DNA of 64,000 bases from an uncultured Candidatus Izemoplasmatales bacterium (GTDB taxonomy: Bacteria > Bacillota_I > Bacilli_A > Izemoplasmatales > Izemoplasmataceae), in contig CAYNAA010000004.1 of the NCBI GenBank assembly GCA_964395055.1, forward strand, positions 1,830-65,829. Reading direction: 5' to 3'. The notes beneath the pieces were generated by a model that saw only the letters and a list, made by a program, of their open reading frames with translations, was not told where the DNA came from and ran no database searches. Positions 5,170 to 47,700 of the stretch are shown in pieces. The position numbers and the translations under genes are program-made. How positions within the stretch are numbered: position 1 is the stretch's first letter; each line of letters starts with the position of its first letter.

Positions 5170-5256
5170 TGGTAGGCGAGGCGGGGATCGAACCCGCAAG
5201 CCCATACGGGCAAGGGATTTTAAGTCCCTCGTGTATTCCAATTCCACCACTCGCCC
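5170..5256 (-). tRNA. tRNA-Leu (anticodon UAA), class II, CCA encoded
   Basis: Hand-folded. Acceptor GGGCGAG/CTCGCCT. D-arm GTG..CAC with GG in the loop. Anticodon stem AGGGA/TCCCT with loop CTTAAAA. Long variable arm GCCC-GTAT-GGGC. T-arm GCGGG-TTCGATC-CCCGC. Discriminator A, then CCA. 87 nt. Confidence 0.9.
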
Positions 5257-15366: not shown

Positions 15367-15790
15367 TCCAAAAGATTATTGGTTCCCCTAATTCAAGTGT
15401 CTCTTTCCCAGTTACTGGATCAATGAGTAAAACATTCTCATGATCCCAAGCAAAAGCATGTGCCGGTCCTGAAGCTTGTCGTACCAATACTCCTGAGTAA
15501 TTTCGCATATAATTCCAAATTCTTGCCTTAAAGTTAGGATGCTTTCCAATAGGAAGTAAATTACCTTCAAAGTCAAAAGCTTGTATGATTTCGGTAATAG
15601 AATATTCTATATTCAAAACTTCAATGATTTCTTGTATGTGAAAACACTGATACGGAAAATCCGTGATATATTTTTTATTTAACCCCGTGTGCCCGATATT
15701 ATATATAAGGTCATTGACATCCTTGTTTGTTACCATAGCAAAAGCCGTTGGCAAACATGCACTTATATTAGGTTGTTTCTGTGGTCTCAT
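15326..15790 (-). CDS. hypothetical protein, possible papain-like/C39-like cysteine peptidase
   Basis: N-terminal Q..NISACLPTAFAM (a Q...C pattern) and a later PAHAFAWD (His). Weak, by eye only. Confidence 0.35.
   Translation of the reverse strand: MRPQKQPNISACLPTAFAMVTNKDVNDLIYNIGHTGLNKKYITDFPYQCFHIQEIIEVLNIEYSITEIIQAFDFEGNLLPIGKHPNFKARIWNYMRNYSGVLVRQASGPAHAFAWDHENVLLIDPVTGKETLELGEPIIFWIVERRSEKVISGN
15598..15609. repeat. TAGAATATTCTA palindrome, exact copy (in CDS)
   Basis: 12/12. Read as I-E-Y-S-I. Confidence 0.9.
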
Positions 15791-16086
15791 GGTAAATCAA
15801 TTTCCTGTTTTATGGCGTCACTTAAACTAGAATAACCTCGTTTCTTTCCTTCTTCAGTTAAGAAAGTTTCTAATTCATCTAATTTTTGTCCGAGCATTTT
15901 TGCGAAAACATATGATCGCAATATCTCAGAATATAGGCTATCCTTAAAATTTGATGGACTATGCTTACCTGATCCATTGCATAAAGGACAAGTTTCAAAT
16001 TCCCATCTATATCGATCATAGCCATATGCCTTTGTTCTCATACGTATTGTGCCTTTACCGTTACAATAATAACATGTACTCATCAT
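15787..16086 (-). CDS. stand-alone DnaJ-type zinc-finger protein (99 aa)
   Basis: CYYCNGKG and CPLCNGSG give two CxxCxGxG motifs. ATGA overlaps with both neighbours. Confidence 0.6.
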   Translation of the reverse strand: MMSTCYYCNGKGTIRMRTKAYGYDRYRWEFETCPLCNGSGKHSPSNFKDSLYSEILRSYVFAKMLGQKLDELETFLTEEGKKRGYSSLSDAIKQEIDLP

Positions 16087-17000
16087 TTGTCTCCTTCACT
16101 GTTATCTCTATTATAACACATTTTCTCTTTTATGTCAAGAGTTACGGTTTCCGCAATCGAAAACAGTTTTGCTACAGGACCGTCATTTACGATAACGGTA
16201 TCCCATTCCGTAAAATTATCAAGAGCAGTATCTGGTACTGATGTAGAATATTCTATTCGTGGATTTTCTATCTTAAATAGCTTTCCTTTTTTCTTGTGTA
16301 TTGCTTTTGCTTCATCGGGAAACCTAACATCTGTAATAATTACAACATTAGCATTATGGGGTGTATTTAATAGATACGCTGTCCAAGTATTTTCCCAAAC
16401 TTGCTCACGTATCGCGGGCGTGCCCATTCGTATTAATGTTTCGCGTGCGGTCAGGCCCGTAGCAAGTGTTAAATCTTTATCTTGGGGCTTATATCTATAA
16501 TGCATCTCAGACCTAAATCCTGCCCAGCCATACAATCTATGACATATTTCATATAAAGGAGAAGCGAATGCAGTAATATGTGTAGTGAGACCAAGAGCAT
16601 TTAATTTTGCCGAAAGCACTAAAGCAAAAGTGTCTTTCCCTACTCCACTTTTATGCCCTAATCCAATGAAAAAAGGAATGAAGGGATAGATGACTTCTCT
16701 TTCTTTTATGGCTTTTTGATTAGTGACTTCTCTTTCTTTTGCGGCTTCTCTTTCTTTTGCGACTTCTCTTTCTTTTGCGACTTCTCTTTCTTTTGTGGCT
16801 TCTCTTTCTTTTGTGGCTTCTCTTTCTTTTTCACCAACACAACTACAAATAAGCAGTTTGCATTTATTGTAGTCCATAATTAAACCTTTTCCATGACATA
16901 AATTACAATTAAGATTTGCGTTAGGGTATTGGGGCATCTCCCCTGGATCAATACTAAAAATCAGCTGATCGTAATCTTGAGTTTCAAGCTCTCGCATCAT
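16083..17000 (-). CDS. deoxynucleoside monophosphate kinase with N-terminal zinc knuckle and KEREAT repeat linker
   Basis: CNLCHGKG. Six KERE(A/V)(A/T/V) hexapeptides. P-loop GLGHKSGVGKDT, the G..SGKDT type seen in phage dNMP kinases. Confidence 0.6.
   Translation of the reverse strand: MMRELETQDYDQLIFSIDPGEMPQYPNANLNCNLCHGKGLIMDYNKCKLLICSCVGEKEREATKEREATKEREVAKEREVAKEREAAKEREVTNQKAIKEREVIYPFIPFFIGLGHKSGVGKDTFALVLSAKLNALGLTTHITAFASPLYEICHRLYGWAGFRSEMHYRYKPQDKDLTLATGLTARETLIRMGTPAIREQVWENTWTAYLLNTPHNANVVIITDVRFPDEAKAIHKKKGKLFKIENPRIEYSTSVPDTALDNFTEWDTVIVNDGPVAKLFSIAETVTLDIKEKMCYNRDNSEGDK
16244..16255. repeat. TAGAATATTCTA palindrome, exact copy (in CDS)
   Basis: 12/12. Read as I-E-Y-S-T. A GATAAT lies 23 nt downstream on the minus strand. 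Confidence 0.9.
16722..16829 (-). repeat. 18-bp in-frame tandem repeat x6 (KEREAT linker)
   Basis: Residues 58-93 of ORF 16083-17000. A degenerate seventh unit follows. Confidence 0.85.
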
Positions 17001-17013
17001 GATGTGACTCCTT

Positions 17014-17060
17014 TACCAAAAGTTTTTACTAAGAGTTTTTACTAAGAGTTTTTACCAAAG
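17014..17060. repeat. 13-bp tandem repeat x~3.5 at a gene junction
   Basis: TACCAAAAGTTTT, TACTAAGAGTTTT, TACTAAGAGTTTT, TACCAAAGATCTC. The last unit contains the stop of ORF 17052-17945. Confidence 0.8.
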
Positions 17061-17945
17061 ATCTCCTATATCAAATATCTGCTTAAACCAAGACATAAAG
17101 CCGTCATCTTCTTCAGGATAATCCTTACCCCACATAGCATTTTCCAATGCTTTCTGAGCTTTTTTACCTTTTATACCTGAAGTAGGGTTGAATTCTGCTG
17201 CTTCTTGATCCCGAAAATCCCAATAATTATATGCTCTGAATCGTGGATGCTTTTTCACAACTCCCATATAGAAGTCATAAATCCATTGTGCCTGCCTTTC
17301 TTGAGTAAAATTAAATATCCCTGAAGGACAGCTATTTTCAGACAATTCAAAAGGTAAATCCGTAGCTTCTGCTAATTTATCAAGCCTTTTTAACATTGTA
17401 GTTGATGAAGGTAGCATACTTTCTTCTGCAAAAACATGTGCTTGAATACCAATACATTCAAATAAACCTTCATTAGCCTGAATGAATTCGATATATTGAT
17501 CCAACCAGTCACCAGTTAAGATACCATGAGTATTTAATCGACGATCCCATGAATCAGATTGAGCAGCTTGGAAAATTTCAATGACTTGTGCCATTGTAAC
17601 ATATTCTGGATATTTTTCGAGTGTTTGCAATGGTTCATTAAAAGGATCAACCACACTTACTTCAGCGGCCAAATGTGTTTTCACTTCATGAACACGTTGA
17701 AGACGCTGTTCATGGGTAGCTTGAAAATCAGGTAACCAGCTTTTGCTTTCACATCCTGGAATAAGGTAGATAATAGGATGTAATTGGACTTCTTGAAATC
17801 CTGCTAAAAGAATTTGTTGGATATGTTGTCTAAGTTCCAATACATTAGGCCACTTAAACCAATAACCCCCAACACTAAGCTGATTGAATCCCATTTTAAG
17901 AAAAGTGTCTTTCTCAAGATGACTATCAGTAATACCATTCTTCAT
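17052..17945 (-). CDS. putative glycoside hydrolase (clan GH-A TIM-barrel-like)
   Basis: VVDPFNEPL is a candidate acid/base NEP motif. IGIQAHV and FELSEN are candidate nucleophile-strand motifs. ATG 17945 overlaps the VRR-NUC stop (ATGA), so the upstream 38 codons of the track ORF are discounted. Confidence 0.4.
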   Translation of the reverse strand: MKNGITDSHLEKDTFLKMGFNQLSVGGYWFKWPNVLELRQHIQQILLAGFQEVQLHPIIYLIPGCESKSWLPDFQATHEQRLQRVHEVKTHLAAEVSVVDPFNEPLQTLEKYPEYVTMAQVIEIFQAAQSDSWDRRLNTHGILTGDWLDQYIEFIQANEGLFECIGIQAHVFAEESMLPSSTTMLKRLDKLAEATDLPFELSENSCPSGIFNFTQERQAQWIYDFYMGVVKKHPRFRAYNYWDFRDQEAAEFNPTSGIKGKKAQKALENAMWGKDYPEEDDGFMSWFKQIFDIGDLW

Positions 17946-18334
17946 GATTTTTTCCTTGTCTTTTCCTGCCTTGTTTTTGGGGAATACAAAAATGTGTGCC
18001 AATTCGGCTTCTTGAACAGTTTTTGATATTCCGCTAAAGTCGCGGCAGTAAGTACCCAAATTCCCTCGCCAGAAGCCGCAATGATCGGGAAATATTTCAA
18101 CTGTGCAGGGGTGAACGCAAAAGCTTGTAAATTCTTGACTTCAATCCATCTTGACCCATGAATATGGTGTAACGCATACAGATCAGGGAACCCTCTTTGA
18201 AACATATTCCCATGAGTTACCATAACCACCCAATCCCTGACAGAAAGAAACTTAATCAGGTTTTGTTGAATTGCGTGCTCTGGCCCCTTACCTTTTAATG
18301 ACTTTGGTGCATACACCTTTGACTTCACTCCCAT
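17942..18334 (-). CDS. VRR-NUC domain nuclease
   Basis: GFPDLYALHH...WIEVKNLQAFAFTPAQ gives the G-x-PD...E-V-K...Q pattern. Confidence 0.7.
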   Translation of the reverse strand: MGVKSKVYAPKSLKGKGPEHAIQQNLIKFLSVRDWVVMVTHGNMFQRGFPDLYALHHIHGSRWIEVKNLQAFAFTPAQLKYFPIIAASGEGIWVLTAATLAEYQKLFKKPNWHTFLYSPKTRQEKTRKKS

Positions 18335-18641
18335 AAGTCGCCTTGATTTTGCGGATCAAGTCTTCTCGATTTTCTCCTGCCAACCCTAAAAAAGTACCTA
18401 AATCACGTAATTCATAAAGTGTTAGTGTCTCTAATTTTTGTCGTTTATGCCATTTACGCCATTTCTTCAATACTCCTAAATTCTCAGCCATAATAAGACG
18501 AACAAGTTGTTTCTTAATTCCTGTAGAAGATTCATTATAGAATATTCTAAATTCAGCGGAATTAATTAATCTTTCAATTGCTCTGAGATTATTAATCCGG
18601 TCTTTAACACTTTTAATAATATCATTTATTTGTCCGCCCAT
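18288..18641 (-). CDS. hypothetical protein (117 aa)
   Basis: Same-strand packing. Contains palindrome 18538-18549. Confidence 0.5.
   Translation of the reverse strand: MGGQINDIIKSVKDRINNLRAIERLINSAEFRIFYNESSTGIKKQLVRLIMAENLGVLKKWRKWHKRQKLETLTLYELRDLGTFLGLAGENREDLIRKIKATYGSEVKGVCTKVIKR
18538..18549. repeat. TAGAATATTCTA palindrome, exact copy (in CDS)
   Basis: 12/12. Read as R-I-F-Y. Confidence 0.9.
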
Positions 18642-21007
18642 GAAGCTAGTCTCGTTTTCCAGTCAATCTCAAGTAAAGGCACAACAGAACGATACTCTTT
18701 AATAGTATCATCTACAGCTTGAGTTAATTCAGAGCGTTTTCCTGGCATAACGGGCACCATTACTTCATCATGAATATTTAAGGGGATAACGCACCAATCA
18801 GAATAACCATATGGCTGTAATTTCCAGCAATTACATTGTAATCCTTTTGTTATTTGAGCACCTGTTCCTTGAATTGGCATATTAATAGCAACTCTTGCCA
18901 CTTTATTAGCTATAGAAAATGCTGCCCCATATAAGGCAGATCGCGTGGCACCAATTAAAGTCTGGGAATCTTCTGATCTCACAACTGTACCTATTCTATT
19001 GGCCCATTCTTTAGGTGGATTGGTTGCCAATTCGTACAATGCTTCAATGACTTGGAATTCTAAAGTAAAATAACGAGTAAAGCCCAGCAATGTTGTCACG
19101 GTATCTTTATGTGGGCGCCATTTAATTTCTGTACGTTTACCTCCAGGTTGGTATAACGGACAATAATCTTCCATTGTTTTAGATCGTTTCTTGCCTACTT
19201 CAGGGTAAGCTCGTTCAAAGGAATTAATGCCTGCTCTTGCTTCATTTTGTTCAATACCTAAATTTTTCTTAAAAGCGTGTTCTGTACCCGCAAATAGCCA
19301 GGTAAAAAGTCCACTTTTAGAAATGGTATATAAATCAGGTACTTGTCCGTCTGTTAATCTAATCTGTTTGTAACTATACCCAGGAAAAATGTGAGTTCCA
19401 AAAATTGCATGGATCTTTTTCTTTTCTTTGCCAGTGTTATCACATTTTTGACAACCTACGCCATCACAATATACACAATCAACATAACTCGTTAATTCTT
19501 CTATCAATTCAGGATCATTGTAGACGGCAGCAGCAATGGTGACTTCAAACCCAGAAAAGTCACCGCCATCAAGATCCATATTTTCAAATGCCAACGGAAA
19601 AGCCTTACGAACATATTTCGCTTTCTTAATACCTTGCGCATTTAACCCGCCTGTTCCAGACATGCGACTACTTAAAGTGCCAATTACATTAAGGGCAGCA
19701 TGGAAACGACCTGCAATTAAGAATTTATCATAGACCTGGATTTCTTTTTCTGCATGGCGTGCTTCATATACGAGATGAGCACGATAAGATGCTTGACACT
19801 CCCACTTAATTTCCTTGAGTTTTTCGTGACGCTCTTTTACATCAAGCTTTGCTTTATCAATCTCTTTAATTTGCTCAGCCGCATTTTCATCCCAGTCCAT
19901 GATCTCTTTTAAGGCTTCTTTGTCTGTTGAATCAGGCATACCTAATGCTTCTTCTTCAGACATTACGGCACTTATCCAACGCATAACTGCACGTTGATCT
20001 GTAGGTATTTTACCTTTTATTTTAAGAGCATATTCTCGTAAATCTTTAATTAATTCTATATCAACTTTGAAACCTTTCCATCTAACAGCTCCAACCATAC
20101 ACGCCAATATTGAATCATTATCTCCAATTGGTGGATCATTGAAATGATGATATAAGGCTCTCGTATACACAACATCATTTTCAGCATACTTGCGAGCAGT
20201 TGGATGAAAACCCCAATAATCAATATGATCATCAATAAATTGAGGCCAAGCTCCTTTCCATTTTCCCTTGAAAAGTTTTTTTCTTTGACCTTTCCACTTA
20301 TCTAACTCTTGTAAAGCTAATGCAAAGGGCGCATACCCTAATTCCAAAGGATACTTATAATCAGGTAAAGCGATTTCTTTTAATAAAACGGGATCTTCCT
20401 CAAGATTTAAAGCATCCTTTGCTAATGCTTTAAGTGCTGATGAAGGTGAGAATTTAACATATAAATTCACAAACCCCGATTTTGGGTGCTCCTGAATCTT
20501 CCAAACGGATTTTCGGCGTTTATCTTTCTCAAACAAGATTGCCTTAAAGGGAAGTCTTCTATTTAATTCTTGCTGTAGAGTTTCTGCCATTGATTCAGGG
20601 ATTTTACGAATATAGATATTCTTTCGATCCATAAGATATTGGTATTTAGTTTTTCTGGCATGAAGCATTAAGTCAAAAGCTGAACGTGGTTTAATACATC
20701 CCCTATCTCGTGCATCAGGCTCACAATTTGCATATAACTCAGGATCAATGTATTTACAGGCATTTGGGTAGCGTTCCTGATATTCTAGCAAAGTTGTATA
20801 GGCTTGTGCAATATGGAACCAGTCGAATGCTAGATTAAAACCGATGACACAATTACCCGCAAACCAATCAATTAGATCAAGGGTTTCTTGAACAGGACGA
20901 CGCCAGACCTCATGGATAGATACCTCTCCTTCTTCTTCAGCATACTGTATAATTACAATGGGACCATGTAATCCACAAGTTTCAGTATCTAAGTAAATTT
21001 TTTTCAT
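18626..21007 (-). CDS. family A DNA polymerase with 3'-5' exonuclease domain and inserted zinc knuckle
   Basis: Exo motifs YLDTETCGL, GFNLAFDW and YAENDVVYT. Pol motif A DFSGFEV, motif B region KSGLFTWLFAG, motif C NIHDE. CVYCDGVGCQKCDNTG is inserted just after motif A. Confidence 0.9.
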   Translation of the reverse strand: MKKIYLDTETCGLHGPIVIIQYAEEEGEVSIHEVWRRPVQETLDLIDWFAGNCVIGFNLAFDWFHIAQAYTTLLEYQERYPNACKYIDPELYANCEPDARDRGCIKPRSAFDLMLHARKTKYQYLMDRKNIYIRKIPESMAETLQQELNRRLPFKAILFEKDKRRKSVWKIQEHPKSGFVNLYVKFSPSSALKALAKDALNLEEDPVLLKEIALPDYKYPLELGYAPFALALQELDKWKGQRKKLFKGKWKGAWPQFIDDHIDYWGFHPTARKYAENDVVYTRALYHHFNDPPIGDNDSILACMVGAVRWKGFKVDIELIKDLREYALKIKGKIPTDQRAVMRWISAVMSEEEALGMPDSTDKEALKEIMDWDENAAEQIKEIDKAKLDVKERHEKLKEIKWECQASYRAHLVYEARHAEKEIQVYDKFLIAGRFHAALNVIGTLSSRMSGTGGLNAQGIKKAKYVRKAFPLAFENMDLDGGDFSGFEVTIAAAVYNDPELIEELTSYVDCVYCDGVGCQKCDNTGKEKKKIHAIFGTHIFPGYSYKQIRLTDGQVPDLYTISKSGLFTWLFAGTEHAFKKNLGIEQNEARAGINSFERAYPEVGKKRSKTMEDYCPLYQPGGKRTEIKWRPHKDTVTTLLGFTRYFTLEFQVIEALYELATNPPKEWANRIGTVVRSEDSQTLIGATRSALYGAAFSIANKVARVAINMPIQGTGAQITKGLQCNCWKLQPYGYSDWCVIPLNIHDEVMVPVMPGKRSELTQAVDDTIKEYRSVVPLLEIDWKTRLASWADK

Positions 21008-21010
21008 AGC

Positions 21011-21883
21011 TTATCTACCTGGAATACTAAGTTCTCCCGCTTTGGGAATACCTTCTTTTCTAACTTCATATACTTTACCGATCTCTGAAAAATGTGTCTG
21101 TAAGTCAGTCATTAAATCTAAATCAGAGATGTTGCCAGCTGCCCAAGCAAGCATCCTAGTGTGTATACCACTATACCCTCCAGACTCAAAATAATGATCG
21201 ATAAGATTTTGGATTTCTTCGGCTGAACGTGCGCGTGAGATTTTTGCTCGACTTTTTCGTGTGGCAACACTATCAGGAACCTTTATTTTTATGGGTCCAC
21301 TATACCCTTTTAACCGTTTATCTTTAATAGCTCTAGCAAATGCAAAACGATCACGTCTATTCTTCATGGAATAAAGTTTTCGTATTTGCTCATTTGTAAG
21401 CATTTCATCTTCAGCCATTTGCTGAATTTCTGGTTCAAGCTCTAAAAGATAAAGTCTAGGTTGAACCCAACCCGTGCTTCTTCCAATTCTTTTTTCAATT
21501 TCTCCACGATCCAATCCCATTCTAACGAATTTTGAAAGGGCATTTGCCTCTTGCATAATTGTCAAATCATGACGATCAATATTTTCTTGGAGATTTACAA
21601 TTGCAGCATCGGTTTTACTCAACTCCTTTTCACTTAAAGTAAAAGGCATTTCCTTCCACTCAAGAATTTTCATACAGGCATAACACCTGGTATAACCAGC
21701 AACGAGATCATATTTTTCCTTGATCCCCTCATGTGGTTTTACCTTGCGAATCAACGGTAATTGGTGTAAGCCTTCTTGTTTGATGCTCTTTGCTAAATTG
21801 AGAGCATGTTCATGCCTGATTCGTCCACGATTATTCGCGTCCCAATCTATGTGGACTTCATCCCATTTAAGTTTTAACTCCAT
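21011..21883 (-). CDS. ParB-like protein with HTH (paralogue B)
   Basis: LPLIRKV...YDLVAGYTRCYA gives the GxxRxxA box, followed by an HTH-like IGRSTGWVQPRLYLLEL. Confidence 0.6.
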   Translation of the reverse strand: MELKLKWDEVHIDWDANNRGRIRHEHALNLAKSIKQEGLHQLPLIRKVKPHEGIKEKYDLVAGYTRCYACMKILEWKEMPFTLSEKELSKTDAAIVNLQENIDRHDLTIMQEANALSKFVRMGLDRGEIEKRIGRSTGWVQPRLYLLELEPEIQQMAEDEMLTNEQIRKLYSMKNRRDRFAFARAIKDKRLKGYSGPIKIKVPDSVATRKSRAKISRARSAEEIQNLIDHYFESGGYSGIHTRMLAWAAGNISDLDLMTDLQTHFSEIGKVYEVRKEGIPKAGELSIPGR

Positions 21884-21887
21884 GATC

Positions 21888-22253
21888 TTATTCCTCTATG
21901 AAGGGCACGTCCTCCCCCATAACCTCTTCATTGTTTGTACATGTATGTTCTTCAACACAAATCTCTCCACAAAATACTTCCCCGCAATCTTCGCAATAAA
22001 CTTCATCGCCAGGAGTAATAGCTTGATCACACCATGAGCAATCCATAATTGGTATCTCTCCTTCCTTAGCTTTCATCCTGTATATCTTTGCGATCACATC
22101 CTTATAGGCTTTCTCAAAACCTAATTTTTGAAAACGCTGACCGCCATCACCATTGATAATACAAAAAAGCTCAATTAATTTAGTTTCCAGATCTTTAGCC
22201 TTTGACTTACACTTAGCCTCATTTTGCTCCATTTGAATTAGTCTTTTATCCAT
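21888..22253 (-). CDS. hypothetical protein with C-terminal Cys-rich zinc-ribbon-like segment
   Basis: CSWCDQAITPGDEVYCEDCGEVFCGEICVEEHTC. Confidence 0.5.
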   Translation of the reverse strand: MDKRLIQMEQNEAKCKSKAKDLETKLIELFCIINGDGGQRFQKLGFEKAYKDVIAKIYRMKAKEGEIPIMDCSWCDQAITPGDEVYCEDCGEVFCGEICVEEHTCTNNEEVMGEDVPFIEE

Positions 22254-22256
22254 GAC

Positions 22257-22841
22257 TTAAAGCTCAACGAGTTTTTTGTACGCAGCGGCCGTCATTAGAC
22301 AATCACCACGAGCCGTATGAGCATCTTTAATCTCAATGCCTAAACCTTGACAAATCTTTCCAAGACTAATTCCCCCAAAGGGCAGGGTCATTTCATTGCG
22401 TTGTGCGCGGTCACAAAGATATAATGCAATACGCGCGACATCGCGAACCTGATAATGAAAAAAGGTGGAAATACAATTCGGCTGTTTGTTATCCCGATCA
22501 AGCCATGCCATAAGCATGGGTTTATCAAATGACCAATTTTGGGCAATTACATCCATGGTTTTACGGCCCGATGGAATAACATAATCCTTGTGCCATTTAA
22601 TAAAAGCTGCAATTGTCTCGGCCCGTGTTGGGGCTTGTTCTAATTCCTCTTTGGTTTTTCCATTAACCTTCAGAGCACGGGGATCCAAACGATCTGGAAA
22701 ATCAGGTTTTACATCTGTTTCAAAAGCCGGAATTTTCTCATTCACACTGAAATCTGGATTTAGAGGCAAAAGGCAAATGCCGATGGCCTCGTGGTAATAA
22801 GGCTGAAGACCTCCTGTTTCAACATCAGCGGCGACAATCAT
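22257..22841 (-). CDS. DnaQ-like DEDDh 3'-5' exonuclease
   Basis: MIVAADVETGGL (Exo I), NWSFDKPML (Exo II) and HTARGDCLMTA (Exo III, H-x4-D). GGAGG sits 9 nt before ATG 22841. Confidence 0.75.
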   Translation of the reverse strand: MIVAADVETGGLQPYYHEAIGICLLPLNPDFSVNEKIPAFETDVKPDFPDRLDPRALKVNGKTKEELEQAPTRAETIAAFIKWHKDYVIPSGRKTMDVIAQNWSFDKPMLMAWLDRDNKQPNCISTFFHYQVRDVARIALYLCDRAQRNEMTLPFGGISLGKICQGLGIEIKDAHTARGDCLMTAAAYKKLVEL

Positions 22842-24786
22842 GATCTGTTTCCTCCATAAACTTTTGTAATTCACCAAGAGACACACTTTGAAGTTCTCGT
22901 TTTTTCTTTAAGTTCTCACGCACATACTCATCTGTTTCCAAATGAATAATGTCAACAATAATAGCTCCTTTATTTTTATCCATCCCGATACGATGGATAC
23001 GTGCTTCAGATTGGATACGATCATCACCCGAGAAGGTATTGGAATAGTATACCAACATATATGATGCCGTTAGAGTTAGAGAAGTTTTTGCTGTAGCTGG
23101 ATGTGCAACGAAAGCAAGTTTCGGGATTTTTCTTTCTTTATCCTGAAAAGCTGTCAATGGATGAGTATTCAAGGGCACACTTGTTGACATCCCATATTTT
23201 GCAGATTTACACTCTTTAGTTCCATCAGCTCGAATAGTTTCCCATCCTGCTTTTTTACATATATCTATCACTCGATCAATCGATGCTGTAAAACCTGCAA
23301 AAACAACGATTCTTCCATTTTCTTCACACTCTTCCAATAATTCTCTAAGCGCTTCATCTTTAGGTGTGGGTACTCGTTTTGTTGTTCTTATCATCTTTGT
23401 GTGAACACCCGCACCATCACAATTTGGGCAAGTCACTTCATATTGTTCTCCTTCTCCTTCTTTGAATTCTATGGATTTACCTCTACCAAAACAACGATCA
23501 CACTGTGTAGTTTCATCACTAGGTTCTTCTTTATATTGAAAACCATCGCTCAATTCTCTTAAACGAGTAAGAGCTTGAATTGTTGTTGGTGAAGTTTTTG
23601 TTATCATTTTCGCGGCGCGTTTAATTGTAGGTTTTATTGGGCATTTCACAATGCGATAAATTATGTCTGGTAAATCAATACAATCCTTCTTGAATTGGAC
23701 TAAAACAAGCCCCCTTAAACGACGGTATAGCTTGTCAATTTCGTTTACGGATGGCTTGAAATGATGAAAGTCATCCGTAAGGCATGTCGATACTTTGGGA
23801 GCTAAGCCCGCTAAGCCTTCCTGAATTTCCTTTTTCTTATCTTCTAGTGACTTATTTCCCATGTGATTAGGGTGATCCTTATACTCACCACAAACCGCAC
23901 ATTTATTTTCATCATCCCACCATGTTATCAATTTCGGATACATACCACCTGCAAGTGATTGTTCCTTCTTAATTAAGGCAAGACAATTTTCCATTTTAAT
24001 GATGTTGCCTTCTTTAAGAAAACCTGGGCAAGCTATTTCCGCTTGCATCCACCAATCCTTAGGTGACTTAGGAGCGGGAGCACCAGAAGCCAAAATGATA
24101 TAAGGCTTCTCATGATCTTTTCTCATCCCATCAGTAAGATGTTTGGCACACTGTGACCGTTGACTTGCCGGTGTTTTCAAGTATTGGGCTTCATCGAAGA
24201 TAACCAAATCCGGTGCAGTACGACCTTCAGGCCAATCCATTACGAGTGATCGCATTTCCGAGTACGACAAAAAGATCGGCCAAACTTTTGCTTCCCATTC
24301 CGAAAACAACAATTTGATTTGTGTCAACGAAAAACGTGGGGCAACATACCATGCTAATTTTGGGCGCACATGCTCTAACACTTCAATGAATGCCAAGGTT
24401 TTACCTGTTCCCATTTCGGCTGCAACAATACATTCACGTCGAGTTAGCATATGTTGTATCATAACAACCTGATGGTCATATAATACACTACGATTAGGCT
24501 TTATGTCAAGAAGTTCCCTATCATAGCGATAATAGGGATCAGGAGCATCGGCATCAAGATATTGTAATGCCCACAAATTACGTGGAGTGCGGTTTACTTC
24601 CCAATGGGGAATTGGATCCCGTGAAAATTTTGCACCCTCCATCGCCCGTATTTCTTCTTTTAAGTTGTTCCATTCATCTGAATGATGCCAATTAAAATAA
24701 AGATAAATCTTTTTTGCATTTTCTTCTATTTGAATACGGAATTTAAGTTTGCCTGATTTAAAGTATTTTACTTGGTCTGCCACCAT
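22825..24786 (-). CDS. SNF2/DEAD-like SF2 helicase with inserted double zinc knuckle
   Basis: LYDHQ, AAEMGTGKT, VIFDEAQYLK and QSEARIHRIGM. CDRCFGRG...CPNCDGAG lies between the two RecA-like lobes. Confidence 0.85.
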   Translation of the reverse strand: MVADQVKYFKSGKLKFRIQIEENAKKIYLYFNWHHSDEWNNLKEEIRAMEGAKFSRDPIPHWEVNRTPRNLWALQYLDADAPDPYYRYDRELLDIKPNRSVLYDHQVVMIQHMLTRRECIVAAEMGTGKTLAFIEVLEHVRPKLAWYVAPRFSLTQIKLLFSEWEAKVWPIFLSYSEMRSLVMDWPEGRTAPDLVIFDEAQYLKTPASQRSQCAKHLTDGMRKDHEKPYIILASGAPAPKSPKDWWMQAEIACPGFLKEGNIIKMENCLALIKKEQSLAGGMYPKLITWWDDENKCAVCGEYKDHPNHMGNKSLEDKKKEIQEGLAGLAPKVSTCLTDDFHHFKPSVNEIDKLYRRLRGLVLVQFKKDCIDLPDIIYRIVKCPIKPTIKRAAKMITKTSPTTIQALTRLRELSDGFQYKEEPSDETTQCDRCFGRGKSIEFKEGEGEQYEVTCPNCDGAGVHTKMIRTTKRVPTPKDEALRELLEECEENGRIVVFAGFTASIDRVIDICKKAGWETIRADGTKECKSAKYGMSTSVPLNTHPLTAFQDKERKIPKLAFVAHPATAKTSLTLTASYMLVYYSNTFSGDDRIQSEARIHRIGMDKNKGAIIVDIIHLETDEYVRENLKKKRELQSVSLGELQKFMEETDHDCRR

Positions 24787-26018: not shown

Positions 26019-26969
26019 TTATTGAGCATTTTCGACAAGGGCTTCAGATTCTTCAGCTTTCTTGGCTTCTTCTCGTTGACGACGCTCTTCAGCACGCTTT
26101 CTCTTTGCCTCTTGTTCCTGTTCCCACTTTTCACGCTCAATCTGCTCTGTTTTGGGATCAACCCGAAGAACCCAATCGATAGCGAGATCAAAAGCTTCAA
26201 CAGGCGTCATGTTGTCAGTGACAAGATCCGCGCGTGCCTTATGAGTTTCCTGTTCATCCAGAATATCCGTCTTAGAACGCACACGAGGAAGAAGTTTGAA
26301 TGTCTCAGCCCCGGCTTTCTTTCCGGCTCGCTGAGCAGTCTTGATCTGTTCAAGGCGTGCCTTTGCGGCTTCCACGAAAACTTCAGGAGACTGTTCACTT
26401 GCCCGCTTAACCCATTGAAGCTGTTCGTCTGCCGGAAGCTTCGCAAGCTGTTGAGCATTGGTAAGTGGAATATCACCATTGTCAACGCTTTCCTGAATTT
26501 CCGGTACCAACTTGGATAGATTCATACGGGCCGTGATCCAAGCGGGGGAAACATTCATTTCCTCGGCAAGCTGACTGATAGTTACATCATCATTCAGCGC
26601 CAAATAGTGCATGATCGCGCGACCATATTCCGCAGGCTTAGTCTTAATGTTATGCAGATTCGCTTGAATCTGAAGACTAAGTGTTTTGGATTCATCAGCA
26701 TCCAAAATTTGTGCCGGAATTGTATCATAATTCAACAATTCACAAATAGCCACACGCTGAAGGCCATCAATGAGGATGTAAATCTCTTCGCCGGTTTCCT
26801 CATCAATGGTCTCTCGAACGGTGATCGACTGTAAAACGCCTTCCTTTTCAATGGAACGCTTCAGAAATTCAAATTCCTCTGATTCAGTTTTGGCTTCTCG
26901 TAATGCCCTTTCACCTGCTTTGATTTTGCTTACTTGTACTTCTTCGATTCGTCCACGATTTGCTTCCAT
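26019..26969 (-). CDS. ParB-like protein with HTH (paralogue A)
   Basis: LQSITVRE...YILIDGLQRVAICELL gives the ParB box. HTH TISQLAEEMNVSPAWITARMNLSKL. K/E-rich C-terminus. Confidence 0.7.
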   Translation of the reverse strand: MEANRGRIEEVQVSKIKAGERALREAKTESEEFEFLKRSIEKEGVLQSITVRETIDEETGEEIYILIDGLQRVAICELLNYDTIPAQILDADESKTLSLQIQANLHNIKTKPAEYGRAIMHYLALNDDVTISQLAEEMNVSPAWITARMNLSKLVPEIQESVDNGDIPLTNAQQLAKLPADEQLQWVKRASEQSPEVFVEAAKARLEQIKTAQRAGKKAGAETFKLLPRVRSKTDILDEQETHKARADLVTDNMTPVEAFDLAIDWVLRVDPKTEQIEREKWEQEQEAKRKRAEERRQREEAKKAEESEALVENAQ

Positions 26970-41784: not shown

Positions 41785-44700
41785 TTATGCGGGTTGAATC
41801 CTTATGCCAAACAATTTGACATCATCCGTAAGATCATCACGAGTACATTTTAATCTAAAGATAAAGAATGGTCCATCTCCTTCTGGAGTAAAAGTATATT
41901 CTTTCTTCTCATAACCAAAAGTATTCCCATCAGATGTTGCTATCGCTGTTTCATCAGTTGGCCAATAAGTTTCAGCTTGAGAGGGAAAACCATCGGTAGG
42001 ATTTAATGCTTTTGCTCCGAAGTTCCAAAATAACCTTTCATCCTCAGATCCCCCATGCCAAAAGATTGTGAGTTTAAGTACGCCCCCTGCATATTCATCA
42101 GGTGGTGCAAAAGTCCACACATAGTATTCATCATCTGTTTCAGTAAGTTCTAAATGAGGGGCAACAAAATTCTTAAAAATATCAACTGGTCCATAGTTCA
42201 TTTCACCTAAGCGTCCTGCTTCTTGGGGAGCAAACCAATGTGACCATAATTTATTAACTGCTCCTACTCCGCCTTCAATAGTACCAGTAATCGTTGTTGT
42301 ACCATCTAAATTAACCCTATCATTGAAGTTAGTCTCATTTTCAACTTCAATTGGTCCACTTGCTGAATGTATAGGGGCACCAATTGTAATAATACTATCA
42401 GTTATCGATGTATTTCCAATTTCCAAATTCGGTAAAGAGAAAGACCCAACGGTAAGTGTTCCGTCAATATTTACATCTCCTGCAAAGATAGAAGTAACAC
42501 CTGTCCCTAATACTCGAATTTTTTCATCAGTTACAATTGTACCTTTTGCTTTTATCTCACCATTTTCATAAAGAGTTGCACCAGAATCCGCATATCCACT
42601 GCCGACTTGAATTTCATCGAAGGCAAATAATCCACCTGTATCATTGATGATAGAGCCACTTACAGTTAAATCACCTGCAATTTTGAGATCACCATTTGTA
42701 TAAATTGTAACTCCACCGTCATCGAAACCCTCAGTATTTCCTATGGGATTTATTTTAAGGTCGGTTTCACTTATAAAATCAAGATCACCAGTAAATGTTA
42801 AACTACCATAAAATTCACTAACTCCTTCCATCGTAAATTTAAGTTGATCAACACCATAATCAGATAACTTTAATTGATTATCATCACTGATCCGATAAGT
42901 TAATTCCCCTATATCTGGGTAATATCTAAGCCAATGGCCCTCTCCGCTGGTAATATATATATTATCTGGCTCTAATGTAATAGTATCACCAATAGTTAAA
43001 GTATTATTAACAGTCATGGTATCAACATTTTGATCTGCTGTACCACCTCCAATAATACTTCCATCGATCTCTAAATCTCCTGCGATTTTAATCTTTGTAT
43101 TTCCATCATCTGATATCGTTATACCGCTATTATTATATCCACCCAGAAAATGAACACTATTGGCAAAGTATACATGCCCAGCAAAATTACTATCTGTCCC
43201 CGAGTTAGTTTGATTTAATTTATCAAAAGTTATTTTTCCTACTCCACCTGTTTTTTCAATTATTACTAAACCATCGCCAATACTTAAATAATTAGCAATA
43301 TATACAGTCCAATTAAAGTCACTTCGATCATTGAATGTGGCTGTTCCATCTATTTCCAAATTCCCCGAAACATCTACTTCAAATTGGTTAGAATCTCCGA
43401 CTTGAAGAGTATCAAATACTCCTGTTGATCCACCTCCCCCTGAATTAATTGTCCCATCAACTGTTAAATCACCGCTAATTTGAATATTTCCATCCGCTGA
43501 AATTGATACCCCACCGCCAGTATAACCATAGTCACTTCCATCTTTACCAAGATCAATTCGAGCAGTATTAGATGGTAGAATAATATCTCCATTGTTGTAT
43601 CCTGTTATCCCTGCACTTGTGCCTACGATAACAGCACCGCCGCTAGGAGTATCCCCAGCAGAATCTGATCCAACATTTATTCTAGTAAGAGCACCAATTA
43701 AATCGTCAGTATGGATTCGTCCAGCAGATATAATTCGTCCGTCTTCATAAAGATCTGATCCACCATCGTCATAACCTCCACCAACAGTTAAGCTAGTGAA
43801 AGCATTACTGGGATTACTTGGATCAATTTCTGTGCCATTAAGAATTAATGATCCGTCTATAACTACGTCACCAGCATCTGTCATAGTAATATTACTACCA
43901 ATAGTTAATTGCGTATCTGTATGAATATTATTATTGGTTTGGAATAAGCCATTTGTTGATATCGTTGCACCGGCGCCGCCACCATATCCTCCACCAACAG
44001 CCAAACTTTCTACTGCACTTACATCTCCCCCATCCCAACCAATAATATCACCACCAATCTCAAGATCACCAGTTAATACTATTGTTCCGTCACTCTTAAT
44101 AATTACGCCAGTAGTTGTGTGGTCTCCTGCTTCAAGATTACCATCGGTTTGTACATTACCACCTGGAGTAACAGTTAAACCTGTATCACCATAACCTCCA
44201 TATAATAGGATATTAGTATTATTTGCTTCAAGATACTCCCCGCCAAGAATATTACCATCAGTGCTTAAATCTCCATTTCCATCTATTGTTAATCCTGTAT
44301 CACCATAACCCCCTCCAATAATAATACTATCAAACTCATTCCCGCCAGTTCCACTTCCACCATTAATAGTTCCATCGACAGTTAAATCACCTGCAATTTT
44401 TAGATCACCATTGGCTAAGATAGATACCCCTCCTTCATCATACCCATAGGAAGAATAATCTAGAATCCCGCCTATATGAATATCTTTCTTAAAGATACTA
44501 CGATCAGGTAAGAAAGTAAACCAATTACTTAAAGTATCATCAACAGTATAAAAACGAATTTCATGGACATCACTAGCTTCTGATCCTGGCGCATTATTAA
44601 AAGATATTTCTCCATTGATTCTTGACCCATCATATTTATGTGTAATTTCAGCATTATCATGTAAAAACCATATATGACAATTTCCACTTGCTCCTGTTTC

Positions 44701-47700
44701 ATGATCAATTCTTAAACCTTTATCCGTTACAAGATAACCATCAGTTTCTACACCATATGCACCTATCGTTGCTCCACCAATTCCACCATGATATCCCCAA
44801 GCTGCATGTATATCTGCACGTGCCCAAATTTCACCACCAACTTCTAATTTACTATTACTAGGAGTGTATTGCATCCCTTTGCCAGATACAGGGGAAGATT
44901 CTTCTTCATCATCATACCACTTATTTGTACCATAAAAATAGGTGTGATCTTTGAAAGAAGCAGTTCCTTCAATAATCAAATTACCATCTGCTTCAATGTC
45001 TCCAAGATGAGAAATTGTTACTCCTGTATCACCATAACCTCCGCCTACAGACAAACTATCAAAGGCACCTGTTTCTGCAATTGTTGTAGTGTGTGTGAAA
45101 GAAATCCAATTGGCCCCATCCCAGCCTTGCCAATCACCTTCTTGTAATAAAGTAACTTCGTCATCAACTTCTACATCTTGGAATAAGGCTGGGGAAATTT
45201 CTATTTCCCATAAACCTCCACCTAGATCACTAGAAGAAATTATTTGATATTTTGTAGGATCATCTTCAATTAATAATCTTGGTTCATCTACTTGTGTTTC
45301 AACGATTTCTACGGGGCCGTTCTTGATATAAATAGTTGTACTGTCAACAGGAAGAGAAGTATTAATTTGGGCTTTCACTGCACCCGTGTATCTCATTATC
45401 CCGCAAAAACGTTCATCAATATCATCGTTACCTATTCCAAGATATCCTCGTCCATAAAGAGTATTAATAATTAAATTATCTCTAATATTGAGACTACCAT
45501 TAACCAAAACATCTTGATTAAGGGAAATATGATGATGGTTAAATTCAGCTATATCAAAGCTACCCACAACTAATTGGTCAATAAATCCAATAGAAGGACA
45601 ATAAAACATATCATAAGCATTCAATACCCCATTAACTGAAATTGCTTCAGCACTGATAGCCTTATTAACAGTAATAGTATCTTGGCTAAAGTTAATGATT
45701 TTTTCTGGTTCAGCTTCAGGAGTCAAATAATAATTTAATTCTAATTCTTCTATATTGAGAGTTAATCCCCAAGCGGGAGCCGTTTCTTGACTAGAATCAC
45801 CTAGACGTAATTCCGTAGATAATTCGAGATATTGCCCACGAAGACCAGTATCTTCTATATAAGATAAATATTCCGTAGAATAAAAAGAATTTGTATCTGC
45901 GCTAAAGAATACCGCGGGCTGTTCATGAGAAGGATCAATTAAATTTCTTCCCATGGTAATATCCCACCATTGCTCAGTATCGTCAGATAAAGCTTGCTGA
46001 TAAGCTTTTAATCGATCAGACTCAAACTGAATTGCACCTAAATCATCTGCACCCCAAATTCCTGATAATTTTATTCCTGTTGAAGATGTTATATCATCTG
46101 CACTTAATGATCCACCTATTGAAGAATTATTAGCAACATTTAAATTATTGGATATATGTACCGTATTTGCACACCAAAGTTCAACATCAATCCATATACC
46201 ATCTCCATCAAGAGTTAAATGATCTGTTGCTACCCAATTATCCCCATCACTATATAAGAATTTTCCTGTGTGACTATCAGGATTTTGAAATGGTAAATGT
46301 CCAGTTAATGACACCCAACCAATATTCTCAATATATGCCTCATAATCATTTTGGTTATATCGTAGTTGACCCCCAGCAGCAATAGGTGGAGAAGACAGAT
46401 CTTCATAAGCCTTTAATTCAAAGACTTCATTGACAATGACTTTATCGTCTTGTAAATTTAGTACATTAGTAGGAAGCCATGCTTCAGAAGTAGCATCCCA
46501 ATGAGTTAATTGTCCATCTGTTGTACCTAAAGCAATATCTGTTTCTGTCTCGCCAATAATAATCCAATCAGTGCCATTTGGAGAGAATTTAAGATTAGTC
46601 CCATCGAAATAGAGTCGACCAACAGCAGCTCCAAATCCGGGACTAGTTTGTGCATTTAAATCAAGATATTGCTCCATTTCAATATTTTGTACAGAAAGTA
46701 ACTCAGTGTCAAAATCAAAAGTTAATAGATTTGTATTTCGATACTTACCACCCTCATAGTCAGGATCATAAATTACTGTTGATCCTTTTATTGGGGATTC
46801 TTCATTATTCCATATAGCTTGGCCATGGAAGCCTGCGGTAAATGATACCCATTGATAACCATCCCAACCTTCCCAGTCACCTCGGGATACGTTGCCAGGA
46901 GTTGAATAACGAATAGCACCAACAGGAATATATGGTCCGCCAGCTACATGACCTATACGAATATAACTACCGAATAATGCTTCTTCTGCACAGTATAAAC
47001 GGCTTGTATCTATTGAACCCGTGCCTAAAACTAGATCGCCCTCTTCAATAAAGACACTATCATTTAATACATCTACTCTACCAGCTATGATAACATCATT
47101 ATTTGCCTTTAATAAATCTCCAATTTCAACTTCACCATTTAATAAAGATTTACCCTGGTTAACTAATGGATGGGCAGGAATTGCTGATTCTGATCCAGTT
47201 TTAACACTTGATCCAGCGTCAACAGCTTCAGTTAATCCTGCATTAAGATGTAAAGTATCTGTTGGATCACCCTCAGCATTAGCTAAAATATACCAGTTAT
47301 CTGAAATTTTTACAGACATTCCTGCAGATAATTGTGAATCGAAATTCGTTACCTCTATTATAGTATCACCTGGATTATGGTCATTTACTGTCATCCCTGT
47401 TTCAGAAACTGTTCCTGGAAGTTCTGTACCTTCTCCAAATTCTGCTGTATCATACCCTAAACCTAAATGATAAGCAAATACCCCCCTCGTTTGCAGTAGC
47501 AATCCACCAGGTAATCCTTGTTCACTTTTGCTACGTATCTCAAAGCCATTAAAAATGAGATCATCGCCTTCATCTTGAGGCATTCGATAATGAATTTCAA
47601 AAATCTCTGATCTATCTGTTATCCCACCGGTACCCCGATCTTCTTCATCCGTTTTTATATGCCAGCCTTGACCTGTAGGTTTTTCATCATCATCATTTAC

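Follow-up and report, generated by a model that had tools for sequence, protein, structure and literature searches.

Introduction

Phage DNA polymerases (DNAPs) with an insert that resembles part of the chaperone DnaJ have been described before. One of the features by which the HMO-2011-type marine phages are recognized is their "atypical DNAP": its central domain is a partial DnaJ, with two CXXCXGXG motifs located after the exonuclease domain and before the polymerase domain, and no function is reported for this insert (PMC9038755, PMC6918029). Stand-alone proteins with two CXXCXGXG motifs have also been noted in Acinetobacter phage Loki (gp45) and Bacillus phage Riggi (PMC5313236, PMC3853051). 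Here we analyze a stretch of 64,000 nucleotides from an uncultured Candidatus Izemoplasmatales bacterium (contig CAYNAA010000004.1 of assembly GCA_964395055.1, positions 1,830 to 65,829; hereafter, the window), in which the same short motif recurs in four proteins of a phage replication module, namely a family A DNA polymerase (PolA), a Snf2-family helicase, a deoxynucleoside monophosphate (dNMP) kinase and a protein of 99 amino acids (aa). A preliminary description of this DNA, made without database searches, stated that no described replisome is organized in this way; for the polymerase that statement is inaccurate because the HMO-2011-type DNAP already has a partial DnaJ domain. Although the knuckle of a phage polymerase was already known, the second PolA clade and insertion site, the conserved site in a Snf2 helicase and two apparently young grafts are new. 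We lean, without great confidence, towards the interpretation that each of these units binds one zinc ion and staples an inserted loop into a rigid protrusion, each serving its own enzyme.

A motif common to four proteins

A six-frame scan of all 64,000 bases of the window for the pattern CxxCxGxG returned exactly six matches, all on the minus strand and all inside four open reading frames (ORFs): two in the 99-aa ORF, one in the kinase, one in PolA and two in the Snf2-like helicase. The amino acid composition of the called genes (20,572 residues) predicts 0.013 occurrences, and 1,000 within-protein shuffles gave 0.009 on average and 1 at most; chance is therefore excluded as the source of the six motifs. 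Moreover, the xGxG extension is attached to 6 of the 16 CxxC in the called genes, where 0.075 would be expected. The preliminary description had listed the motif in the same four proteins, at positions that the scan reproduces, and had regarded the bearers as otherwise unrelated; the identities of PolA, the Snf2 fold and the dNMP kinase hold in Pfam, Foldseek and PHROG, respectively.

The four genes sit within one co-directional replication and nucleotide module. The four coding segments share chance words of 7–10 nucleotides only and have no DNA similarity to one another, on which ground recent intragenomic copying of the knuckle was rejected. Furthermore, the motif is kept across relatives whose GC content ranges from 37% to 63%.

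The polymerase knuckle and its two insertion sites

The polymerase matches Pfam PF00476 with 61.9 bits (cut-off 34.3), its AlphaFold2 (AF2) model has a mean predicted local distance difference test score (pLDDT) of 90, and Foldseek aligns it with the Bst, Klenow, G20c and T7 polymerases at E values of 1e-12 to 1e-13. No exonuclease or polymerase motif is disrupted, and D7, E9, D62, D278, D483, K564, H746 and D747 are invariant in a 32-sequence alignment; E488 and H533 are likewise invariant in the polymerase alignment.

The exact motif, CVYCDGVG at aa 511, is directly adjoined at aa 519 by CQKCDNTG, a relaxed copy with N for G that lies outside the count of six. Together they represent the pair of CXXCXGXG motifs that is the trait of the HMO-2011-type DNAP, and many homologues have two exact copies. 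The knuckle starts 22 residues past motif A (GGDFSGFEV, aa 481–489), ends 7 residues ahead of His533 and, in the AF2 model, occupies the fingers loop between helices 499–506 and 532–540, the ten-residue blocks over aa 501–530 having pLDDT values of 92, 90 and 89. In a profile alignment with the solved Pol I of phage G20c (7r0k) it corresponds to a clean gap, 'LLNQGR-----DLHAY', in keeping with the earlier view of the motif as a graft on an ordinary PolA. His533 aligns with the His of 'DLH' in G20c Pol I and of 'DIH' in Klenow, and we take it to be the counterpart of Klenow H734 and T7 H506. In the T7, Klentaq and Klenow structures this histidine contacts the phosphates of the incoming deoxynucleoside triphosphate (dNTP). 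The knuckle is thus placed in the fingers loop directly before the nucleotide-binding helix, a loop linking the mobile helices to the portion of the fingers that stays static.

About 1,900 homologues of this polymerase were found in the protein database, together with 241 related IMG/VR contigs, and we compared 190 non-identical polymerases as well as, locus by locus, 80 IMG/VR loci. Knuckles occur at two hot spots, site 1 in the thumb and site 2 in the fingers loop just before the dNTP-binding His. Site 1 lies between 'STKKVILEEIAKW' and 'HPAA.RA..VLDAR'. Site 2 is the segment from 'L..L' (22 residues past motif A) to the invariant 'KIH', and it takes several forms: no insert, 'LxSGKKIH' like Klenow's 'EGKDIH', with 20 residues from motif A to KIH; one knuckle, with a linker of zero to dozens of residues; two nested knuckles, which give the four-motif arrangement of DnaJ; and plainer CxxC…CxxC ribbons, the longest segment from motif A to KIH being 95 residues. 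The four nested repeats are restricted to some homologues (e.g., P0014, P0021, P0085), and one homologue, P0062, passes the Pfam family DnaJ_CXXCXGXG (33.0 bits; cut-off 32.7). The number of cysteines per site is mostly 0, 4 or 8 and sometimes 3, 5 or 6. Both sites are occupied in 69 of the 190 polymerases, site 1 only in 64, site 2 only in 44 and neither in 13 (7%), the polymerase of the window having its knuckle at the fingers site only; the exact motif stands at the same site or sites in 62 of the 80 IMG/VR polymerases.

Fitch parsimony on a quick neighbor-joining tree sets a minimum of 16 changes for the thumb site and of 28 for the fingers site, and the knuckle-less state arises about ten times, confined to small tip clusters. 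Across the family the knuckle differs in site, number and linker. The two sites tend to be used in an either-or manner (odds ratio 0.32, p = 0.001, Fisher test not corrected for phylogeny), a pattern that is suggestive only.

At its own thumb site (aa ~372–398, 19880–19960) the polymerase of the window has, according to alignment and AF2, a charged helical hairpin of ~40 aa instead of a knuckle, and it has this hairpin in common with about a dozen of its closest relatives. Thus, different structures fill the same thumb position.

The helicase knuckle

All of the top 50 PDB matches of the helicase in Foldseek are Snf2 ATPases, including Ino80, CSB, Mot1, Rad54, Rad5 and ZorD, at E values of 1e-15 to 1e-18; its AF2 model has a mean pLDDT of 88, its best PDB sequence match is Fft3 and the Walker motifs AEMGTGKT and FDEAQ are present. 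The match to Pfam SNF2-rel_dom, at 21.6 bits, is just below the cut-off of 24.9, which the homologues P0139 (28.4) and P0169 (26.2) exceed.

The two motifs, CDRCFGRG at aa 429 and CPNCDGAG at aa 453, are placed between the 'LRELSDGFQY' helix, the last of lobe 1, and lobe 2. AF2 predicts strands at 416–428, 437–441, 448–452 and 461–471 (pLDDT 74–91), of which the two long ones, 416–428 and 461–471, form an arm with the predicted zinc site at its tip. This inter-lobe position is, in the account of Flaus et al. (2006) as cited in PMC4565979, a family-specific insertion region of Snf2 ATPases. The set that we collected comprises 74 helicases in synteny at the IMG/VR loci plus 120 homologues from the database, 181 distinct sequences altogether, and 173 of the 181 have at least two CxxC right after the 'LRELSDGFQY' helix, with a spacer of 13–118 residues (median 34). 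The exact motif stands at the same site in 54 of the 74 IMG/VR helicases, and C429, C432, C453 and C456 are invariant in an alignment of 37 sequences with 43–62% identity to the helicase of the window; positions of the knuckle other than Cys and Gly are variable. In the cultured distant homologue YuA gp02 a CxxC…CxxC lies just upstream of the 'LRELSDGFQY' helix, and the helicase p34 of Vibrio phage phiVC8, compared at the knuckle site, is without a knuckle, which bears out the earlier view that this motif, too, is a graft on an ordinary enzyme, here Snf2. In the literature that we consulted on phage Snf2 zinc ribbons and on DnaJ and polymerase insertions, neither the helicase knuckle nor that of the kinase is described.

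A lobe 1 insertion of the helicase contains a second putative zinc site that the preliminary description missed: C296 and C299 are invariant, and H308 and H341 are each shared by 90% or more of the sequences. The segment between the two histidines is variable and of low confidence, and the putative CCHH site may staple another insertion. In addition, the Pfam family PF27659.1 is precomputed on a few polymerase and helicase homologues (P0067, P0114, P0139, P0169), and it may be a recently curated family that already describes the zinc module discussed here.

The kinase extension and the 99-aa protein

The kinase matches PHROG 139 (3.8e-29, aa 103–298) and has the P-loop GHKSGVGKDT; its match to Pfam DNMK (PF21448), at 21.8 bits, is under the cut-off of 27.1. 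The N-terminal extension contains one exact copy of the motif, CNLCHGKG at aa 32, together with a CxC, and the cysteine cluster may form a single Zn(Cys)4 site. We also considered a half-site that shares zinc between two subunits, as in the zinc link of RNase E, an idea that is unneeded because C52-x-C54 can complete the kinase site. All 20 database homologues of the kinase are 178–252 aa long, none of them has a CxxC, and the 18 with a recognizable P-loop begin 7–14 residues before it; one IMG/VR relative has a short 'CRYCKGT' prefix. A mis-called N-terminus was rejected: the ATG at 17000 has a strong AAGGAG Shine-Dalgarno sequence ahead of it, and no start codon is located near the P-loop, which argues that the extension is translated with the kinase.

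An 18-bp tandem repeat at 16727–16830 (5.8 copies with 96% matches according to Tandem Repeats Finder) encodes the KEREA(T/V/A) linker, which would be a single alpha-helix spacer; the 96% identity of the copies indicates a recent expansion of the linker. Another tandem repeat, of 13 bp (TTTACTAAGAGTT, 3.4 copies), occupies 17012–17055, where a short gap between genes directly precedes the kinase ribosome-binding site, and may be a regulatory element.

In the 99-aa protein the motifs are CYYCNGKG at aa 5 and CPLCNGSG at aa 33. The match to Pfam DnaJ_CXXCXGXG scores 23.7 bits, below the cut-off of 32.7, and a sequence comparison with the PDB gives 1exk, which is the cysteine-rich domain of DnaJ, and Anti-TRAP (3lcz) as the top matches, neither of them significant. 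An exhaustive HMMER search over 1.84 billion representatives recovered the protein itself and matches to aa 3–44 alone, with no detectable homologue of the C-terminal 55 residues; the motif is all that the protein detectably shares with Anti-TRAP, and no relationship to lambda Q was detected. The two best-scoring matches (P0262, P0263) are cellular proteins of ~500 aa, in which an N-terminal region with an HNH-like motif is combined with five to seven tandem 'CPLCxGSGEHN…CPVCxGxG' knuckle pairs.

Of the two closest relatives examined, one comes from a freshwater metagenome; within the stretches fetched for both, exact motifs are present in the polymerase and helicase only, with no exact-motif stand-alone protein and no knuckled kinase. 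Likewise, the 80 IMG/VR loci contain 121 genes with the motif, and 116 of these are a polymerase or a helicase. Judged from these comparisons, the kinase knuckle and the 99-aa protein appear to be lineage-specific, recent additions, whereas the polymerase and helicase knuckles appear to be old and maintained by selection, because the helicase cysteines are invariant and at least one polymerase knuckle is present in 93% of the family. The proposal of the preliminary description that the knuckles are lineage-specific insertions thus stands for the kinase and the 99-aa protein but not for the polymerase and helicase, whose knuckles are old in a large clade of uncultured phages. It had further named, as an observation that would count against its idea, the common occurrence of the same insertions at the same sites in unrelated phages. 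In part this is the case, as the insertions do recur at the same sites, in the 62 of 80 polymerases and 54 of 74 helicases, but these relatives are related phages, not unrelated ones.

The phage, its relatives and neighboring genes

The phage of the window resembles a siphovirus, with a tape-measure protein of 1,996 aa and a major head protein that matches PHROG 283. A comparison with 50,697 phage records (the region by megablast and tblastn, the full polymerase by tblastn at 1e-5) yielded no cultured relative, and the C-terminal half of the polymerase has weak PolA matches only, to Thermus, Enterococcus and crAss-like phages. Relatives of the polymerase also occur in metagenome-assembled genomes: five of them (L091, L094, L096, L099, L105) lie inside Planctomycetota contigs of 0.19–4.2 Mb, assigned to Thermoguttaceae, Pirellulales, Planctomycetia and Planctomycetaceae, among them a 4.2-Mb Thermoguttaceae chromosome and a 2.6-Mb Pirellulales contig. 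Thus, the clade probably includes temperate phages, present as prophages of Planctomycetota. The coordinates of the knuckle-bearing genes and their elements are collected in Table 1.

ParB-like genes at 21011–21883 and 26019–26969 flank the helicase-polymerase block, and the one that adjoins the polymerase is kept in 75 of the 80 related loci, which makes it as core as the helicase. Between this ParB-like gene and the exonuclease gene, a protein of 121 aa with nine cysteines (CSWCDQ…CEDCGEVFCGEICVEEHTC; 21888–22253) has a weak FYVE-like match only and represents another kind of zinc finger in the same module. Elsewhere in the window, an ORF of 3,419 aa (41785–52044) adjoins the tape-measure gene and has no PHROG match at 1e-5. 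The segment 1900–6400 has a GC content of 0.43–0.51, against about 0.36 elsewhere, and contains a tRNA-Leu(TAA) at 5170–5256; it could be mobile, could derive from a host or could be an attachment region.

Table 1. Knuckle-bearing genes of the window and their sequence elements (zinc binding is predicted throughout).
Feature	Position	Strand	Basis
dNMP kinase with unique 100-aa N-terminal extension, 305 aa	16083..17000	-	PHROG 139, homologue comparison
Kinase cysteine cluster CNLCHGKG-x11-C-x4-C-x-C (C32, C35, C47, C52, C54)	16839..16907	-	Motif scan
Charged KEREA(T/V/A) linker, from knuckle to kinase domain	16701..16832	-	Tandem Repeats Finder, sequence
99-aa orphan protein, N-terminal zinc knuckle pair and C-terminal tail	15787..16086	-	ORF, motif scan, HMMER
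Knuckle module of the 99-aa protein: CYYCNGKG, 20-aa linker, CPLCNGSG	15967..16074	-	Motif scan
Family A DNA polymerase with 3'-5' exonuclease domain, 793 aa	18626..21007	-	Pfam, alignment, AF2, Foldseek
Polymerase zinc knuckle CVYCDGVGCQKCDNTG, aa 511-526, hot spot site 2	19430..19477	-	Motif scan, alignments, AF2
His533 of the invariant KIH, 7 residues past the knuckle	19409..19411	-	Alignment
Snf2-family ATPase or helicase, 653 aa	22825..24786	-	Pfam, AF2, Foldseek
Two-stranded beta-arm, aa 416-471, knuckle at tip	23374..23541	-	AF2, alignment
Helicase knuckle CDRCFGRG-x16-CPNCDGAG, aa 429-460	23407-23502	-	Motif scan
Second putative zinc site C296, C299, H308, H341 in lobe 1 insertion	23764..23901	-	Alignment

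Discussion

With respect to the function of the knuckles, we favor the interpretation in which every pair of CxxCxGxG motifs makes up a Zn(Cys)4 mini-domain complete in itself, its topology being that of a single zinc center in the DnaJ cysteine-rich domain. The invariant cysteines, their counts of mostly 0, 4 or 8 per polymerase site and the confident AF2 hairpins all suggest zinc binding. The four cysteines would pinch the two ends of the inserted segment together, so that the segment would project as a rigid hairpin from a solvent-exposed loop and leave the host fold undisturbed. A minimal module may comprise as few as 16 residues, and phages of this clade would have acquired such plug-ins, dropped, doubled and enlarged them at a small number of tolerant sites, namely the PolA thumb, the PolA fingers loop before the dNTP-binding His and the inter-lobe region of Snf2. 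The polymerase and helicase knuckles would most likely be stiff protrusions that contact DNA or a neighboring domain, like other PolA thumb inserts and Snf2 protrusions. AF2 yields a confident hairpin for the polymerase and a confident arm for the helicase; moreover, six loci with a knuckle-less polymerase still have the helicase knuckle, which is consistent with each knuckle serving its own enzyme.

Several considerations weigh against this interpretation. The geometry of the protrusions relative to DNA is a prediction from alignments and from textbook structures of PolA and Snf2 proteins. Zinc center II of DnaJ and the fingers of Anti-TRAP, BSD2 and Hep1/Zim17 are protein-protein interaction modules, which favors docking. 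Furthermore, the retention of at least one knuckle by 93% of the polymerases, combined with the negative association of the two sites (odds ratio 0.32), hints at a position-tolerant requirement that would fit a handle for a partner better than a local contact with DNA. Finally, the position of the kinase knuckle at the end of a long charged spacer is a typical tethering arrangement.

These points lead to the alternative of a shared docking or assembly interface, in which the knuckles would bind each other or a common partner and organize a replisome with a local dNTP supply. We consider this unlikely, although a number of observations would accommodate it: the co-directional arrangement of the four genes in one replication and nucleotide module, the invariant Cys4 of the helicase along with the prevalence of polymerase knuckles, the ~45-aa charged spacer of the kinase knuckle, the distance of only 7 residues between the polymerase knuckle and the dNTP-binding His, the weak and uncorrected either-or use of the two polymerase sites and the general propensity of known DnaJ-like fingers to mediate protein contacts. 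If true, it would bear on the long-standing question of how dNTPs are channeled to replisomes. However, the stand-alone protein and the kinase knuckle are absent from the two closest relatives examined and the extension is absent from all 20 kinase homologues; therefore, neither the stand-alone protein nor the kinase knuckle is a conserved partner. Moreover, the polymerase knuckle is constant neither in its site nor in its copy number nor in its linker, site 2 alone requiring at least 28 gains or losses, it is missing from 7% of the family, the helicase knuckle is kept in the six loci where the polymerase has none, and no surface residues beyond Cys and Gly are conserved. On all these counts, the single common partner that the preliminary description had suggested is unsupported.

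Mimicry of DnaJ, in which a partial cysteine-rich module would draw the host Hsp70 (DnaK) to the replication proteins of the phage or lock it there, has been raised in the HMO-2011 literature (PMC9038755). There is a weak match to Pfam DnaJ_CXXCXGXG in the window, and the homologue P0062 is marginally above the cut-off of that family. The window scores, 23.7 and 20.5 bits, remain under the curated threshold of 32.7, each protein has one zinc center only, and the Pfam scan of ten replication-module proteins, which included all four knuckle proteins, revealed no J domain. The J domain is the part of DnaJ that stimulates DnaK. Lambda, which needs both DnaK and DnaJ, provides an echo of such a mechanism, but for the phage of the window we regard it as very unlikely.

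An elaborate version of docking would be a 'velcro' factory, in which the kinase is tethered through its knuckle and a charged helical spacer of ~6 nm to the polymerase knuckle at the mouth of the dNTP pocket, the Snf2 motor and the 99-aa protein being held likewise. It would imply direct channeling of nucleotides into the phage replisome, and we give it very little credence.

The position of the polymerase knuckle in the fingers loop beside the dNTP-binding His, and the four oxidizable cysteines at all sites, could also be accommodated by a redox or zinc switch, with the Cys4 centers sensing oxidation or metal supply, like the zinc center of Hsp33, and tuning the activity of the polymerase or helicase. 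The knuckle is dispensable at the fingers site in about 40% of the family, and its variable position argues against a tuned allosteric switch, which makes this reading highly improbable. Lastly, chance, composition bias or descent from a mobile element such as an intein or HNH endonuclease, the last suggested by the resemblance, as read from the sequences, of the 99-aa knuckle to the tandem arrays in cellular proteins with an N-terminal HNH-like motif, can be practically dismissed given the excess of about 450-fold, the conservation of the motif over the whole GC range of the relatives and the lack of DNA similarity between the copies, an intein or HNH remnant being rejected also on size, with an insert of 16 aa in the polymerase and no nuclease motif.

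Returning to the zinc-stapled protrusions that we favor, the present analysis extends the phenomenon to a second, very large uncultured PolA clade, with a site beside the nucleotide-binding His, and to an invariant site in Snf2 enzymes. The natural versions of the polymerase with zero, one and two knuckles at two sites offer a ready series for questions of processivity, fidelity and partner binding. Furthermore, the family illustrates how low the cost of adding a folded protrusion to a large phage enzyme can be.

Comparison with known systems

A structural parallel is the cysteine-rich domain of DnaJ (Hsp40; PF00684), where, as predicted for the knuckles, two CxxCxGxG motifs flank a beta-hairpin and form one Zn(Cys)4 center; some polymerase homologues with four nested motifs even reproduce the two-center topology of DnaJ. 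Unlike DnaJ with its four repeats, the proteins of the window have one predicted center made of two repeats or, in the kinase, of one repeat and a CxC. The knuckles reside in enzymes rather than in a chaperone and are unaccompanied by a J domain, a G/F region or the C-terminal substrate-binding domains; in particular, no J-domain family, with its HPD motif, was detected in the Pfam scan of the ten module proteins. In sequence, the match to 1exk, the best in the PDB, is not significant, and the PF00684 threshold of 32.7 bits is above the scores of the 99-aa protein (23.7) and the helicase (20.5), the polymerase and kinase of the window having no match. The 99-aa protein is short and has two CXXCXGXG motifs like Loki gp45, the Riggi protein and Anti-TRAP of B. 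subtilis, and differs from them in its C-terminal 55 residues without homologue.

Among the Snf2 ATPases, Rad5, Rad16 and HLTF carry a RING finger between the ATPase lobes, and Ino80 and Swr1 carry a spacer there. The helicase of the window is similar to these enzymes in having a module inserted between the RecA-like lobes, and Rad5 and Ino80 are among its fold matches. Where Rad5 has a RING of the C3HC4 type with E3 ligase function, the helicase has a minimal Cys4 knuckle borne on a beta-arm, and, unlike the Snf2 subfamilies, it is a phage protein of ~650 aa with no other recognized accessory domain.

For the polymerase, the thioredoxin-binding domain of T7 gp5 and insert 1 of Pol theta provide precedents, both being inserts at the tip of the thumb that modulate the binding of DNA or of a partner. 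Site 1 of the present family lies in that region of the thumb too, as does the knuckle of HMO-2011. Unlike T7 gp5, the polymerase of the window has its knuckle in the fingers loop and a helical hairpin at the thumb, and we know of no processivity factor for it.

The DNAP of HMO-2011 is, like that of the window, a phage family A enzyme with a 3'-5' exonuclease and an inserted pair of CXXCXGXG motifs that is conserved across a phage group. The phages themselves differ: the HMO-2011 phages are marine podoviruses of ~55 kb according to the literature, with a DnaB helicase and no Snf2 helicase, and in the first 30 kb of HMO-2011, which include the replication module, the motif is found in the polymerase only. 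In HMO-2011 gp12 the motifs are at aa 294 and 319 (aa 294–326), in the thumb before the 'STSKTNLELLE' helix and ahead of the polymerase core, unlike the knuckle of the window, which is inside the polymerase domain after motif A. A BLASTP comparison of the two polymerases gives 26% identity over 119 aa only (E = 1e-4), short of the threshold for relatedness to HMO-2011, which is 25% identity or more over 80% or more of the length (PMC9038755). Thus, with its marginal similarity and its thumb location, the HMO-2011 knuckle represents a parallel case, in another PolA clade and at a third site.

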